From the sequence record OQ411014.1: DNA of 64,000 bases, one strand, 5' to 3'. The notes beneath the pieces were generated by a model. It was not told where the DNA came from. It did no database searches and saw nothing but the letters and a program-made list of their open reading frames with translations. The stretch comes from Escherichia phage EJP2. Each line of letters opens with the position of its first letter. Positions within the stretch are counted from its first letter, which is position 1. Position numbers and translations under genes: made by a program. This document shows, piece after piece, positions 7,334-44,785 of the stretch.

Positions 7334-9304
7334 ATGGCAAAGAAACAATCATCTGTCATGGAAGAACATGGAATCCAACAACTAACCGAATATGAACACG
7401 CCCGAATCAGGACAGAAATGTATCTTGGTTCACGTTCTGTGCATGAACAGATGGCTCTTATCTTTGGTGAAACAGGCTATGCAGTACTGAACACTGCTTG
7501 GGTTCCAGCACTACTAACATCTATTCGTGAAGTTCTTGATAACTCCCTTGACGAATTCGTGAAAGCAATGGTGAAAGACCCTGAACTACGCGTGACGTAT
7601 GATGAAGGAACTCTAAGCATCGTGGTTTCCGACAACGGTCGCGGTATTCCAATTGACTACGTACCAGATACGCAAAAGAACTTGTGTACTATGGTAATGA
7701 CTGAAATGAAAACTGGTCGTAACTTCAATGATGACGAACGTGAAAACGTCATTGGTATGAACGGTCTTGGTGGTTCAGTTGTAATGATTGTTAGTGAAAC
7801 TGCTGAACTGGAAATCCATCGTGCTGGTCGTCCATACAAAACCACAAGCAGTAATGATGGTTATGATGGAATGTACAAATTTACACAGAAATTCAGCGAA
7901 GGAACTCACATGTTCCCTGACCTACAAATCAATGAACCAACGATTCGTAAAGTCAAAGCTGATAAGACTGGTACTACAATTCGTTTCAAACTAAGCCCAG
8001 CAGTATTCCCGAACCTAGTACTACCAACTGAACTAATCTATAGTATCCTAAAAGAGATTAGTGCTGCGAACCCTACCTACAAAATCTTCCTGAACGACAA
8101 ACGTATTCAGTCTAAAGGTGGAGTAGAGAAAGGTCTATTTGGTAAAGCTAAACTAATGACCCTAAGTGTGAAAGACCCAGGCTTTGACAGTACTTTTTAC
8201 ATCGTTCCTGATTCAGTAGAAGGACAAAGTACTAATTTCCACATGCATGGTCTAGTAAACAACGCCCCAGCGTTAGAAGGTGGCACTCACCTAGAAACAT
8301 TCAAGAAGTTCTTTGCATTAGGTATTGGGACTTCTCTTGAGAAAGAAGCTAAGCGTCGTAAAGTAAAACTAAAACCCAACCGTTCTGATATTGAAGAAGG
8401 TCTATTGATTTACAATATCACACGTATGAACTCTCCATCGTTCAACTCACAGACTAAGACTAAACTAACGAATGAAAATGTTATTCGTCCTGTACAGCAA
8501 GCTATGAGTACTGAATGGTTTGATGAGTTAGTGAAGAAAAATAAGGAGTGGGTGGATTCAATCTTTACTCGTTGTGCTGAACGTACGAACAAGAAAGATG
8601 CAGATGAAGATCGTCGTCTAGCAAAGAAACTACTAAAAGGTAAAGTAGCTAAACTCCGTGATGCAACTGGTACTGACCGTTCCAAATGTATCCTACTAAT
8701 CGCAGAAGGTGATTCCGCAATTAGTAACATGTCCGGTGCTCGTGATTCTGCGATTCATGGTATTCTTCCGTTGCGTGGTAAAATCATGAACGTGAACGGT
8801 ACTGAGAAAACTAAAGATCTAATGGATAGTGATTCTCTACGTGACATTATGGCATCAATCAACCTAATCCCAGGACAAAAAGCTGTACGTTCAGAACTGA
8901 ACTATGGTAAGCTATATATCTGTGCGGATGAGGATGAGGATGGTAAGAACATTGGTGCACTAGTGTGTAACTTCCTATTCAAATTCTGGCCTGAACTATT
9001 CCAAGACCCAGAAAATCCGTTTGTTTACATCTTCAAAACTCCATTTATTATTTTGGAGAAAGGTAAAGAAAGTCGTTATTTCTATGGTCATAACGTGCAT
9101 GAATTCAACCCTGACGAATGGAAAGGATGGAAAGCAACTCGTGCAAAAGGACTAGGAACACTAGAGAAATCCAACTTCCGTGATGCACTAACCGATGGCG
9201 TAGCAATCGCAATCACTGATGACGGTAACTTAGGTGCAACATTAGACCTCATCTTCAATAAAGGTCGTTCCGATGACCGTAAAGAATGGATGAAGGACGA
9301 GTAA
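7334..9304 (+). CDS. DNA topoisomerase II large subunit (GyrB-like ATPase plus Toprim; T4 gp39/gp60 equivalent as one ORF)
   Basis: N-terminal GHKL ATPase motifs (DNGRGIP, GMNGLGGS) and C-terminal Toprim (LLIAEGDSA); 656 aa. Confidence 0.9.
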   Translation: MAKKQSSVMEEHGIQQLTEYEHARIRTEMYLGSRSVHEQMALIFGETGYAVLNTAWVPALLTSIREVLDNSLDEFVKAMVKDPELRVTYDEGTLSIVVSDNGRGIPIDYVPDTQKNLCTMVMTEMKTGRNFNDDERENVIGMNGLGGSVVMIVSETAELEIHRAGRPYKTTSSNDGYDGMYKFTQKFSEGTHMFPDLQINEPTIRKVKADKTGTTIRFKLSPAVFPNLVLPTELIYSILKEISAANPTYKIFLNDKRIQSKGGVEKGLFGKAKLMTLSVKDPGFDSTFYIVPDSVEGQSTNFHMHGLVNNAPALEGGTHLETFKKFFALGIGTSLEKEAKRRKVKLKPNRSDIEEGLLIYNITRMNSPSFNSQTKTKLTNENVIRPVQQAMSTEWFDELVKKNKEWVDSIFTRCAERTNKKDADEDRRLAKKLLKGKVAKLRDATGTDRSKCILLIAEGDSAISNMSGARDSAIHGILPLRGKIMNVNGTEKTKDLMDSDSLRDIMASINLIPGQKAVRSELNYGKLYICADEDEDGKNIGALVCNFLFKFWPELFQDPENPFVYIFKTPFIILEKGKESRYFYGHNVHEFNPDEWKGWKATRAKGLGTLEKSNFRDALTDGVAIAITDDGNLGATLDLIFNKGRSDDRKEWMKDE

Positions 9305-10787: not shown

Positions 10788-10816
10788 AAAGGACGCACTA
10801 TGCGTCCTTTGTTATT
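10788..10816 (+). terminator. intrinsic terminator
   Basis: AAAGGACGCA / TGCGTCCTTT perfect 10-bp stem, then T-rich tract. Confidence 0.6.
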
Positions 10817-10854
10817 ATAAATACTCCGTAGCTTTTAATTAATTGGAGAAACAT

Positions 10855-13240: not shown

Positions 13241-13549
13241 ATGTTTAATCCATTTTTCAATCCACAAAACATGACTGACAAAGAACTTAATCAGAAAATC
13301 ATTGACATGAGCACTCGCATCACGAATGCTCGTGCTGGTGGTGCAAGTTCTGAAATTATTGGTAATATGTATGCAATCTTAGATGCGTGTGAAGAAGAAA
13401 ACTATATTCGTTATTCATCAAAAGAGGCTGAATCTTGGCGTGATGACGGTGCTTGTATGTTTGATCTAAATGACTACTTAGATTCAGAAGAGGATAATAA
13501 GAAACCACATGAAAGTTCAAGGAAACAGATCTATAAGCCAGGATGGTGA
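13241..13549 (+). CDS. hypothetical protein
   Basis: ATG 13241 preceded by GGGAGGG RBS; 102 aa. Confidence 0.5.
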   Translation: MFNPFFNPQNMTDKELNQKIIDMSTRITNARAGGASSEIIGNMYAILDACEEENYIRYSSKEAESWRDDGACMFDLNDYLDSEEDNKKPHESSRKQIYKPGW

Positions 13550-14027
13550 TGTACGTTGTAATCTTAACGCAGTAGTTTATGCTATGAACTGCGGTCAAGA
13601 CATACAGTACATTCAACTGGATGATATATCGGAATTTGAGCGAGAGAAGTTCAACACTAACTGTAAGAACTTCGGGTTATCCCAACGTATGCTGGATTAT
13701 ACTATAGAGCATGATAAGAACCATGAGCTATGGCGTTATGATCCAGTATACGACAAGATCAACTTGCTTGATTTTTTCTTAGAAAAGTGTACTACCGAAG
13801 AAGGTAGAGAACGTGTTCGATACGAAATTGGTTTGTACGAACACTACAACATGACCAAACTACTACGTTGTATGATTTGGTTAGTTGACTATATGGAAGA
13901 TAAAGAAATCTTCTGGGGATTAGGTCGTGGTAGCTCCGTTGCGAGTTATTGTCTATTCCTGTTAGGGTTGCATCTGGTGGATTCTGTGAAATATTCACTC
14001 GATGTGAACGAATTTTTGAAATGGTAA
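13509..14027 (+). CDS. DnaE-like (DNA polymerase III alpha) palm-motif fragment protein
   Basis: contains FWGLGRGSSVASYCLFLLGLHLVD...FL, matching the conserved [23 protein letters not shown] region of Pol III alpha; only 172 aa. Confidence 0.45.
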   Translation: MKVQGNRSISQDGDVRCNLNAVVYAMNCGQDIQYIQLDDISEFEREKFNTNCKNFGLSQRMLDYTIEHDKNHELWRYDPVYDKINLLDFFLEKCTTEEGRERVRYEIGLYEHYNMTKLLRCMIWLVDYMEDKEIFWGLGRGSSVASYCLFLLGLHLVDSVKYSLDVNEFLKW

Positions 14028-14044
14028 AGAAAAATGTGATATAA
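14010..14044 (+). promoter_or_regulatory. extended -10 promoter (TGTGATATAAT at 14034-14044)
   Basis: exact recurring 11-mer. Confidence 0.55.
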
Positions 14045-14076
14045 TAGATATCACATAAACAAGAAAAGGATTTTTT

Positions 14077-16747: not shown

Positions 16748-17317
16748 ATGAGTAATACTAGTTCTTCACCAGTACAGACATTATATGATCAAGACGGTCT
16801 TCTCGACATCCTTTTGGGTGTTGAGAAGTATTTTGATGATATGGATTTGTACGCTTATAAGAATTGGATTTACGGTGAACTTGTTGAGGGGCCAATAACC
16901 TCGAAGTACTGGGTTGAAGTAACCTTTAAGTACGATCACGACACATTCCCTGATCCAATCGCTACCCAAATGTTTGAAAAACAAGGGACTAAAGTCTTTG
17001 TAAAAAATGACTTCGAAATAAAACCCATTTCTCACCCTAGAAAATTAGGTGATATGGAAACAGTAGCTGCACAGGGTGCTGGGCTAAGTTTACCTGCTGA
17101 TGAGAAAAAACCAATTATATTATATCGTTTCCAAATTCCACGCCGCATCGTGAACCCTGAAAGTTTCGATGAGTACAAACTAATGACTTCAGTATTCAAT
17201 AGTAATGACGAAGACGAAGTTGCACCAATGATGGATATGGATAGCGAAGATGACGTTGCTGAAATGGATGCACAATTCGGTGATGAACAACCACAGCAAC
17301 AACAAGGGGGTCTATAA
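16748..17317 (+). CDS. hypothetical protein with highly acidic C-terminal tail
   Basis: 189-aa ORF ending DEDEVAPMMDMDSEDDVAEMDAQFGDEQPQQQQ. Confidence 0.6.
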   Translation: MSNTSSSPVQTLYDQDGLLDILLGVEKYFDDMDLYAYKNWIYGELVEGPITSKYWVEVTFKYDHDTFPDPIATQMFEKQGTKVFVKNDFEIKPISHPRKLGDMETVAAQGAGLSLPADEKKPIILYRFQIPRRIVNPESFDEYKLMTSVFNSNDEDEVAPMMDMDSEDDVAEMDAQFGDEQPQQQQGGL

Positions 17318-17997
17318 TGTCCGAATTGAATGAACATGCACTAAGACCTTCAGTACTGAAAGATTTAGTTTACGAGATTATCAGTGTAGATGAATACACT
17401 CCTAAAGTCGGTGAAGGTAATATTGTTGTTGCTTTTCAGGTAAAAGACAACTATGATGCTGCTTATGACTTGAGTTCTTTTATTGAGAAATCACCACTAG
17501 GTGTAGTCGATACTGAAGCTAATGAAACTCCTAACGTTGATGGACGCTACATTGTTTTCGCTGAATTTGAACGTGATGGTGAGTTTCCTAAGAAGCTACT
17601 AACTCTTCTAAAGACAATTGAAAATCTATGTCCAAATCCAGGTTGGAAGTTACAACTATACGGAGTAAACGATCCAATTGATGTTGATTTTGATGTAGTG
17701 AGTACTCGTATTGATTTGACTCACCCTGAAGATTTGACTGAGTTCTTTGACCCAGCGTGTGTGAAAGCTGTAGTACTAGAGAATACAATCTGTTTAGAAA
17801 CTGCTTATGGTGACTTGCATTATACGAAAGGAAGTGCTAAAGTATCTGAGAAGTTTGTAGAAACAGTACTGAAAGAAGGTGCTTATGACCTTGATGACAC
17901 CAGACTAAGTTCTATCTTAGGTTCTGGCTATGATGTAGTGAAAGCTGGCAACCAGTACATCGTAGGACATAAAGGAAAGTATTTCATACTACGTTAA
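17317..17997 (+). CDS. hypothetical protein
   Basis: 226-aa ORF, translationally coupled to upstream gene. Confidence 0.6.
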   Translation: MSELNEHALRPSVLKDLVYEIISVDEYTPKVGEGNIVVAFQVKDNYDAAYDLSSFIEKSPLGVVDTEANETPNVDGRYIVFAEFERDGEFPKKLLTLLKTIENLCPNPGWKLQLYGVNDPIDVDFDVVSTRIDLTHPEDLTEFFDPACVKAVVLENTICLETAYGDLHYTKGSAKVSEKFVETVLKEGAYDLDDTRLSSILGSGYDVVKAGNQYIVGHKGKYFILR

Positions 17998-20804: not shown

Positions 20805-21950
20805 ATGTCCGAGAAAGAAATCAACCCAAAAGCAATCGTAAAAACAAAAGCAAAAGCAAAAGCAAAAAAAGCAGCTACTGTATCTCGTACGATTGATGAA
20901 ACTATTGATTTTGTTGATGTTGAAACCAAGAATCTTCCTGCTGCTCCAGTACTGAAAGATTCTAAAGGTGGTACTCTAGCTCTGACCATCGAGAATATCA
21001 ACACTCTAGGTACTGATGTTGGTACTGGTATTGGTAAACTCTCTGATGATATTCTTCGTCAGGTGAACGTAGCGAACGACAATACCGAATTTGGTAAGTC
21101 CGTAAGTACTATTCTGACTCTAACCCGTAAGGTTGATATTGAGTCCCTGAACGGTGAGCAGACTGGTCTTCTGGCTAAGTTCCGTAACATGTTCAAAGAT
21201 GTGAAACATCGTGTATCTGACCAGTTGACTAACAGCCACGAACAGATCCAAGAAGTTGTCGCTACTCTGGAAACTGGTATCAACCGTATGCGTGGTGAAG
21301 CTGAATGGCTGAAACAAACTTACGATGCGAACATTGTATATCTGAAAGAACTCGAAGAAGTAGTACTGAACATTCAAGAAGTACGTGAAGTTGAAGATGC
21401 GAAACTCAAAGAACTTCTCGCTGATGACAGTACTGAAATGCACATTCTTGATGCACAAAAGATGATTTCTGAAGCTCTGTCCAAGCAAGAAGATAAAGTA
21501 AACCGTCTGATTCACCTGTGTCGTCTGAACGCACCACAAATCATGGCTATGCGTGGTGTGAACATCAACACAATTGATAAGTTCGAATCTCTGAAAACTG
21601 TAGTAATTCCAGCTTGGAAATCTAAGATTGCTCAAGGTCTGATTACTGATCGTCAGCGTCGTGATAACGAACTGGGTGAAATGATGGACAACGAAACTAA
21701 CCGTCTGTTCCTTGAAAGTGCTAAACAAACCAGTACTAACATGGTAACAGCAGCTAAATCCGCACAACGAGGGGTAGTAGATATCAAAACTCTACGTGAA
21801 GTACAGAAGATTACCACACAGGGTATCAAAGAAACTATCGCAGTACAGAAAGCAGGTGAAGCAGAACGTGAAGCAGCAAAACGTGAACTAGCTAACATGC
21901 GTATCGAACTTCGTGATACTCTACGCGATATCAAAAACGAATCTCGCTAA
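20805..21950 (+). CDS. coiled-coil protein, possibly TelA-like
   Basis: 381 aa, KAKAKAK repeat at N-terminus, long helical heptad-like stretches; TelA assignment is a guess from size and composition. Confidence 0.55.
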   Translation: MSEKEINPKAIVKTKAKAKAKKAATVSRTIDETIDFVDVETKNLPAAPVLKDSKGGTLALTIENINTLGTDVGTGIGKLSDDILRQVNVANDNTEFGKSVSTILTLTRKVDIESLNGEQTGLLAKFRNMFKDVKHRVSDQLTNSHEQIQEVVATLETGINRMRGEAEWLKQTYDANIVYLKELEEVVLNIQEVREVEDAKLKELLADDSTEMHILDAQKMISEALSKQEDKVNRLIHLCRLNAPQIMAMRGVNINTIDKFESLKTVVIPAWKSKIAQGLITDRQRRDNELGEMMDNETNRLFLESAKQTSTNMVTAAKSAQRGVVDIKTLREVQKITTQGIKETIAVQKAGEAEREAAKRELANMRIELRDTLRDIKNESR

Positions 21951-43101: not shown

Positions 43102-43191
43102 AGAAGGTTGGCAGAGCGGCTAAATGCACTCGCCTACTAAGCGAGCACTCGCTCCGGCGAGTCGAGGGTTCGAATCCCCCACCTTCTGCCA
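43102..43191 (+). tRNA. type II tRNA with apparent ACU anticodon (Ser-like, unusual)
   Basis: acceptor AGAAGGT/ACCTTCT, anticodon stem CTCGC/GCGAG with loop CTACTAA, long variable arm, T-loop GGTTCGAATCC, encoded CCA; anticodon read by hand. Confidence 0.6.
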
Positions 43192-43204
43192 TATTAGGAT
43201 TTCA

Positions 43205-43594
43205 ATGATGACAATGCATGTGTACGATGAGTATGAAGAACGTATAAAACATGAAATCCAAAGTTATTTGGATGGTGTCAATAAAAAATTGAAATACAGT
43301 TCGGGTAAACGTTTTCAATCATTCACCCTAGAATACATGGATTGTGATGATTATAAACAACGCAGAATAACTATAAAAATTGCAGTTGATCCGAAGTTTA
43401 GTTGTGTGCATTCATCTTTACAGATAGATTCCACTTTTGGTGAAGATGAAGATCAATACTGGAGTGGTTTTTCCTATATACCAGAAAGTGAAGAAAAGCA
43501 CTTTCAAGAAACGTTACTCAATAAACAGATTTTAAGCTGGGATTTATTGCAGTACTTGATTGTTTTCTTCACTAAAATGCAAAATAAAGATTGA
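43205..43594 (+). CDS. hypothetical protein, paralog family A (SEEKHFQETL)
   Basis: start moved to ATG 43205 to clear the tRNA (track ORF begins 43124). Confidence 0.55.
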   Translation: MMTMHVYDEYEERIKHEIQSYLDGVNKKLKYSSGKRFQSFTLEYMDCDDYKQRRITIKIAVDPKFSCVHSSLQIDSTFGEDEDQYWSGFSYIPESEEKHFQETLLNKQILSWDLLQYLIVFFTKMQNKD

Positions 43595-44244: not shown

Positions 44245-44445
44245 GAATTCCACAATCAGACGTATATGGTGTAAGTTACGTCGATGTAATCCAGAACAAG
44301 ATCTCTGGTACTCTAGGAAGTGGTGAATGTTAACCTAGACGGGTTTGATAATTGGACGATAGGCAATTATTACTTGACTAGCAGGTTTAAACTAGAGGTG
44401 ACAGTCCTTCACCAAACTGGAAAACCGGATGGACTTTTTAATTTA

Positions 44446-44540
<95 letters not shown>

Positions 44541-44607
44541 TATTGTTCCGAAAAGAATCGAGTTCTAAGATTTGTGATAACTTGTCTTAGTATAAGATTT
44601 TGTGTAA

Positions 44608-44686
<79 letters not shown>

Positions 44687-44695
44687 TCCAAATTC

Positions 44696-44769
44696 GGCCC
44701 TTTAGCTCAGTTGGTTAGAGCAGAGAACTCATAATTCTTTGGTCACTGGTTCGAGTCCAGTAGGGGCCA
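44696..44769 (+). tRNA. tRNA with CAU anticodon (Met or lysidine-type Ile2)
   Basis: acceptor GGCCCTT/AGGGGCC, D-arm TAGCTCAGTTGGTTAGAGC, anticodon loop CTCATAA, T-arm ACTGG-TTCGAGT-CCAGT; no CCA. Confidence 0.8.
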
Positions 44770-44785
44770 TTAACAAGGAAACAAA

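Follow-up and report, generated by a model that had tools for sequence, protein, structure and literature searches.

A 172-residue gene of Escherichia phage EJP2 belongs to the split, minimal DNA polymerase III alpha family of jumbo phages

Within a 64,000-nucleotide (nt) stretch of Escherichia phage EJP2 (sequence record OQ411014.1; hereafter the window), a short open reading frame (ORF) encodes a protein of 172 amino acids (aa) that is orthologous to a family known from computational work, the N-terminal half (here the N-unit) of a divided DNA polymerase III (Pol III) alpha whose other half (the C-unit) is encoded elsewhere in the genome. Iyer, Anantharaman, Krishnan, Burroughs & Aravind (2021, Viruses 13:63) reported this phage-specific minimal Pol III alpha from group 2.2 jumbo phages, where it is split into an N-terminal nucleoside triphosphate (NTP)-binding protein and a C-terminal Mg2+- and template-binding protein with distant genes, is free of the other Pol III domains, and occurs alongside a family B polymerase. 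The EJP2 ORF shares family, size, end point, genomic context and two-gene layout with that system (the N-unit of which is phrog_11127), and nothing substantive sets the two apart, the ORF being a copy from another phage whose partner lies outside the window; as an orthologue of the described family it is therefore a feature already known. Functionally, we consider it likely that the N-unit is the NTP-binding half of a two-gene, reduced C-family nucleotidyltransferase, and that it pairs non-covalently with the distant C-unit into a small polymerase.

In sequence and in fold, the N-unit is homologous to the first part of the C-family polymerase palm, including its GS loop. The initial annotation had singled out this ORF for a GRGS palm motif, and the motif is real: GLGRGSS is present in a protein that starts from an ATG and includes FWGLGRGSSVASYCLFLLGLHLVD...EFLKW. 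The match to Pol III alpha also extends beyond the short motif, with Pfam PF07733 (DNA_pol3_alpha) scoring 33.2 bits (curated cut-off 23.9, E=5.3e-08) over residues 92-171, which align to profile positions 16-95 of 260 and correspond to residues 321 to about 392 of Escherichia coli DnaE and 336-406 of Mycobacterium tuberculosis (Mtb) DnaE1. Searched against the PDB, a family profile built from 45 members retrieved Pol III alpha chains only (Mtb DnaE1 336-406 and Taq 385-454, E=0.007-0.01). The fold resembles the solved DnaE/PolC palm, the closest folds are those of C-family polymerases only, and no other nucleotidyltransferase family scored. Hidden Markov model (HMM) alignment places E. coli R362, G363 and S364 on R140, G141 and S142 of the N-unit, and G137, G139, R140, G141, S142 and S143 are invariant across the 45 members. 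Together with W136, S146, L149, L151, H155 and E168-K171, these residues concentrate the invariant positions towards the C terminus, while a stretch of about 50 aa at the N terminus is lineage-specific. When the protein is modelled in isolation, residues 131-172, its most conserved part, receive the least confidence (predicted local distance difference test, pLDDT, 57-84), which fits a segment that is ordered only in a complex.

The polypeptide stops at ...EFLKW, around E. coli residue 392 and a few residues short of the catalytic aspartates. It is, as the initial annotation had judged, too short to be a complete polymerase: the aspartate triad (E. coli D401, D403 and D555) is not in this polypeptide, and in relatives it is found on a separate protein. 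Pfam matches to PHP, thumb, full fingers, clamp-binding motif or OB fold were absent both from the N-unit and from all 95 ORFs of the window, and PF07733 itself matched this ORF alone among the 95, in agreement with the earlier statement that no other DnaE segments flank it. Coordinates are collected in Table 1.

Table 1. Positions of the N-unit gene, its polymerase-like parts and the overlapping upstream ORF in the window.
Feature	Position	Strand	Extent or basis
N-unit gene (NTP-binding, split minimal DNA polymerase III alpha)	13509..14027	+	172 aa plus stop codon
Segment aligned with the Pol III alpha palm, aa 92-171	13782..14021	+	Pfam profile, PDB profile alignments, HMM alignment to E. 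coli DnaE
GLGRGSS, G137-S143, Pol-beta-fold 'GS' triphosphate-binding loop	13917..13937	+	Family alignment, E. coli DnaE mapping
Upstream 102-aa ORF, phrog_15348, function unknown	13241..13549	+	Context; not a polymerase part

Three readings had been offered at the outset: a decayed remnant, a piece of a split gene, or a domain co-opted for another role. The first falls; the second stands, as in all relatives examined the catalytic half is a separate, co-occurring gene that begins exactly where the N-unit ends; the third keeps a low probability. By length alone, the ORF might pass for what is left of a dnaE that was once complete, DnaE having 1160 aa where this protein has 172, and the CBB genome paper remarked on the shortness of its own 'truncated' 172-aa Pol III alpha-like protein. 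The ORF, however, is a stand-alone protein that matches phrog_11127 end to end (positions 1-171 of 171, E=1.6e-80) and closes on the EFLK terminus at the break point. A gene of the same size was found by tblastn in 92 phage records, at identities of 75-81% in Rak2-like phages (81% to gene 56 of phage 121Q, 75% to ORF162 of RaK2) and 28-47% in Vibrio, PA5oct-like, Atu_ph07, Phosso, SCTP-2, RsoM2USA and Xoo-sp13 phages; annotated homologues measure 170-178 aa in an unchanged neighbourhood, and all 93 of 93 homologues from a word-seeded search fall between 95 and 187 aa. In an exhaustive HMMER search of 1.84 billion representatives, 445 clusters matched at E<=1e-30, and the best 150 of these were all 157-196 aa long, with a match that reached the end of both profile and protein (the shared ...EFLK end). 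The intact, longer gene that the initial annotation had suggested seeking in related phages did not appear: relatives carry the same short gene, and there was no longer or fused form among those best 150 of 445 clusters. Against 121Q, RaK2 and Hallingskeid, synonymous differences are saturated (pS 0.56-0.77) and nonsynonymous ones few (pN 0.12-0.18), and dN/dS, where computable, comes to 0.07-0.13, for the first 91 aa as well as for the Pol III-like remainder; purifying selection on the N-unit is strong. At least 24 public assembly contigs, many of them independent and ranging up to more than 200 kb, also encode the identical 172-aa protein. These selection and conservation data refute the remnant reading, which we regard as extremely improbable.

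In relatives, the missing catalytic residues reside in a protein of about 210 aa that starts where the N-unit stops. Its representative in 121Q is gene 16 (13282..13920, 212 aa), about 30 kb upstream of gene 56 (44257..44775), the N-unit orthologue; the protein begins MQDSTDSKHYRKARTDIDIDF and carries the catalytic motif TDIDIDF. An alignment of 34 diverse C-unit homologues, some of which begin MDIDIDF, has as invariant residues D16, D18 and D20, K80 and D82 in GYQKVDFL, R149 and P150 in IRPG/IRPA, and K187, H190 and Y194 in FKKxHAxAY. The two halves co-occur: C-unit homologues were found in 95 phage records against 92 for the N-unit, with nearly identical genus counts. Their genes were non-adjacent in 13 of the 13 genomes for which both positions are listed, with 14-224 kb between them: about 14 kb in Xoo-sp13 and RAS14, about 29-34 kb in Rak2-like and Vibrio phages, 43 kb in PA5oct-like phages, 116 kb in SCTP-2, 182 kb in Atu_ph07 and 224 kb in Phosso. 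By synteny with 121Q, the C-unit of EJP2 is expected roughly 15-17 kb beyond the left end of the window; tblastn with 121Q gp16 detected no C-unit in the 64-kb window, and the Pfam scan gave no second PF07733 ORF among the 95. A regular-expression search for D-x-D-x-D did pick out the ORF at 17317..17997 (NDPIDVDFDVV at 17680) as a candidate for the missing half, but this ORF belongs to a virion structural protein family (phrog_13138, E=2.9e-95) with no polymerase signal, so the motif there is a chance match. A C-unit homologue also occurs in Alishewanella phage Slickus01 (142 kb, not a jumbo phage).

The two halves are exactly complementary. Projected onto Mtb DnaE1, the N-unit ends at the equivalent of residue 406 and the C-unit begins at 412, collinear and abutting. 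Fusing the N-unit in silico with 121Q gp16 raised the PF07733 score from 33.2 to 40.3 bits, and fusing four distant N- and C-unit pairs raised it from 34.8-41.5 to 47.0-55.6 bits; each fusion gave a single alignment that ran across the junction to profile positions 112-120, with a gain of 7 to 16 bits. Run against the PDB, a profile made from 24 such concatenations brought up Pol III alpha and nothing else, with E=2.8e-11 as compared with 0.0066 for the N-unit alone and 0.029 for the C-unit alone. The match formed one stretch (Mtb DnaE1 336-424, E. coli 321-420), interrupted where the halves meet by a gap of 2 residues.

How such halves might be joined is suggested by cyanobacteria, where a C-family polymerase is likewise encoded by two distant genes (dnaE-n and dnaE-c), and where a split intein splices the halves to the full-length enzyme, the break lying in the fingers. 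The phage pair differs in having no intein sequences, in a break that falls in the palm just before the catalytic aspartates, and in a minimal product. Splicing of the phage halves by a split intein would need room that the proteins do not offer: nearly all N-units end 1-2 aa past EFLK, C-units start with 0-15 non-conserved aa ahead of DIDID (some directly as MDIDIDF), and no Hint or intein domain appeared in the Pfam results; the intein is rejected because there is neither space for its halves at the break nor a Hint domain. The other covalent solution, a frameshift fusion to the upstream 102-aa ORF, is invited by the overlap of the two genes, which the initial annotation had described correctly as 41 nt in a different frame (13509..13549, with the N-unit in the +1 frame relative to the upstream ORF, whose ATG is at 13241). 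This overlap is identical in 121Q, RaK2 and Hallingskeid but shrinks to 17 nt in Paride and 4 nt in Atu_ph07, while the N-unit ATG and the N terminus MKVQGNR are conserved; the fused product that the annotation had envisaged is rejected because the start is kept and the overlap length varies by clade. Joining by either route, intein or frameshift, is in our estimate very improbable. The overlap, conserved at 41 nt and shorter in Atu_ph07 and Paride, instead suggests that the upstream ORF and the N-unit are translationally coupled.

We posit the following arrangement. The ORF is an intact gene of the expressed type, carried by a Rak2-like jumbo phage. The N-unit would contribute the first part of the palm, its GRGSS loop holding the triphosphate of the incoming deoxynucleotide (dNTP), and the C-unit (about 210 aa, encoded tens of kb away) would contribute the DxD metal-ligand strand, the third aspartate (KxDFL) and cut-down fingers (RPG/RPA and KxHAxAY). 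Most likely both proteins associate non-covalently, completing one palm beta-sheet and one active site, and we infer that the complex transfers nucleotides as a small polymerase devoid of PHP, thumb, clamp-binding region and OB domain. Its place would be alongside the T4-like family B replicase, with short-patch, gap-filling or repair synthesis as a plausible role; because the thumb, clamp-binding, OB and PHP modules are absent, a distributive, short-patch or repair enzyme is more likely than a replicase. Near the C-unit of 121Q, about 4 kb upstream, is a DnaQ/RNase T-type exonuclease gene (272 aa; 8128..8946), the product of which could be a proofreading partner of such a mini-polymerase, although bacterial epsilon binds to the PHP domain, which is missing here.

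Several points weigh against an active two-part polymerase. With the partner gene outside the 64-kb window, the pairing in EJP2 rests on relatives, and our literature search turned up neither biochemical nor genetic tests of the two units. Without a thumb and with most of the fingers gone, the enzyme may plausibly carry out template-directed DNA synthesis, but need not. An invariant glutamate of the N-unit family (E168) replaces E. coli R390. The two genes, moreover, have different surroundings and lie next to each other in none of the 13 genomes, which is unusual for obligate partners.

Part of this evidence could be read as a different enzyme, in which the two units assemble but form another kind of Pol-beta-fold nucleotidyltransferase (for example a terminal or tailing transferase, or an enzyme that produces a nucleotide signal), possibly active only with both halves. 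The missing thumb, clamp-binding, OB and PHP modules and fingers cut to about 130 aa would suit it, and so would the setting of the genes, as the N-unit follows a virion-protein gene without a gap and the 121Q C-unit lies near primase and helicase genes, so that different timing of the halves is conceivable. The C-unit nevertheless retains the Pol III alpha fingers motifs RPG/RPA and KxHAxAY, and C-family polymerases are the only closest folds, other nucleotidyltransferase families scoring nil; we regard this alternative as unlikely. A related idea, to which we give slightly less credence, is that the break in the palm serves regulation and is no mere accident of history. An active site would then form only once a late N-unit, co-transcribed with a virion-protein gene, meets the C-unit from the replication module, and the enzyme might be a non-replicative nucleotidyltransferase (for example for end-tailing, lesion bypass or a nucleotide signal) instead of a conventional DNA polymerase. 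It is doubtful, too, that the N-unit acts independently of the C-unit, as a polymerase-derived adaptor or decoy binding host or phage replication factors. Such a role would accord with its place in a conserved gene block that precedes the GroES-like and gp44 clamp-loader genes, with its never lying beside the C-unit and with its lineage-specific N-terminal 50 or so residues, but its best-conserved residues are those of the GRGSS loop, which binds the dNTP, and of the stretch leading to the break point, and the protein co-occurs almost perfectly with one that starts exactly at that break.

Compared with the bacterial enzymes, the two-gene polymerase that we favor has a palm homologous to that of DnaE/PolC, with GRGS here and DxD, KxDFL, RPG and KSHAAY on the C-unit, all ordered as they are along E. 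coli 321-767. It differs in that the phage pair is without PHP, thumb, clamp-binding motif, OB fold and tau-binding domain and has heavily reduced fingers, in that its active site is divided over two polypeptides, and in that it accompanies a family B replicase and is not itself the replicase. Polymerase X of African swine fever virus (ASFV) offers an analogy in working only: it is a Pol-beta-fold enzyme made of a palm and a small nucleotide-binding module, in a large DNA virus with a family B replicase, and its gap-filling activity has been shown experimentally, but it is of family X, not C, and a single polypeptide. Large phages also build catalytic polymerases from separately encoded fragments in the split RNA polymerase beta/beta' of jumbo phages and the two-gene gp43 of some T4-like phages; the folds are unrelated, and their pieces are usually adjacent or in one module.

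If two proteins of about 20 kDa do reconstitute a polymerase, no smaller C-family enzyme would be known, and nature would here have divided a polymerase active site between two polypeptides. Such a case bears on how little a catalytic core needs, on where the bacterial replicase came from and on why phages with a T4-type family B replicase retain a second polymerase. As the system has been known computationally since 2021, the remaining interest lies in its biochemistry. The Atu_ph07 paper lists the protein as a Pol III alpha subunit conserved in most Rak2-like phages, and the main text of the PA5oct omics paper does not mention a DNA polymerase. Record labels vary from 'DNA polymerase III alpha subunit' through 'DNA polymerase' to hypothetical for the N-unit, and the C-unit is often labelled 'hypothetical' or 'putative membrane protein' or left unannotated; these inconsistencies hide the pairing in many genome records. 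The annotated N-unit of Vibrio phage 2.275.O is 50 codons too short.

To judge by its sequence, the window belongs to a jumbo phage of the Rak2-like kind. At the nucleotide level, the region shares about 75% identity with Erwinia phage Hallingskeid and other Rak2-like jumbo phages (121Q, PBECO4, GAP32, CBB and RaK2), the closest phage-collection record standing at 75.5%. Gene order is shared with 121Q (virion protein, 102-aa ORF, N-unit ORF, hypothetical, GroES/gp31-like, small ORF, gp44-like clamp loader, HAD phosphatase), and the synteny of N-unit, hypothetical, GroES-like gene and, further on, clamp loader is kept from Rak2-like phages to Atu_ph07, Phosso and PA5oct-like phages. T4-like replication genes in the window, in 121Q order, include those for the gp44-like clamp loader, Dda-like helicase and topoisomerase II, along with the gp31/GroES-like gene, and the phage is of the group 2.2 type (Rak2-, PA5oct- or Atu_ph07-like, with a T4-like replication module); no family B polymerase gene lies within the 64 kb.

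The virion-protein gene, the upstream 102-aa ORF and the N-unit follow one another without gaps. The only TATAAATA in the 64 kb, a T4-late-type promoter core, is at 10816..10823 (+), 20-30 nt upstream of the virion-protein gene; the count of one match against 6.2 expected by chance carries no meaning in itself. Because this core precedes a gene that runs gaplessly into the N-unit, the N-unit may be transcribed late, with the structural gene. At the other end, a strong sigma70-type promoter-like site occupies 14016..14045 (+), with TTGAAA, an 18-nt spacer and TATAAT; the -10 is of the extended, TG-bearing kind, and 11 of 12 positions match. The -35 hexamer of this site sits within the final N-unit codons (EFLKW), its TGATATAAT is invariant across 121Q, Hallingskeid and RaK2, and a 7-bp palindrome (GTGATAT/ATATCAC, 14036..14054) spans its -10; the site probably drives the downstream hypothetical and GroES-like genes.

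Elsewhere in the window, the Pfam census of the 95 ORFs identified an IF3 homologue, a PTH2 peptidyl-tRNA hydrolase, an ADP-ribosylglycohydrolase, a TelA-like protein (20805..21950), a C5 cytosine DNA methylase, DHFR, RNase H, a Dda/PIF1-like helicase, both topoisomerase II subunits and a KTSC-domain protein. Six tRNA calls fall within 32.7-44.8 kb (Thr-TGT, Ser-TGA, Arg-TCT, Ser-ACT, Ser-GCT and Met-CAT), among which the ARAGORN tRNA-Ser at 43102..43191 (+) has the unusual anticodon ACT and overlaps the ORF at 43124..43594.
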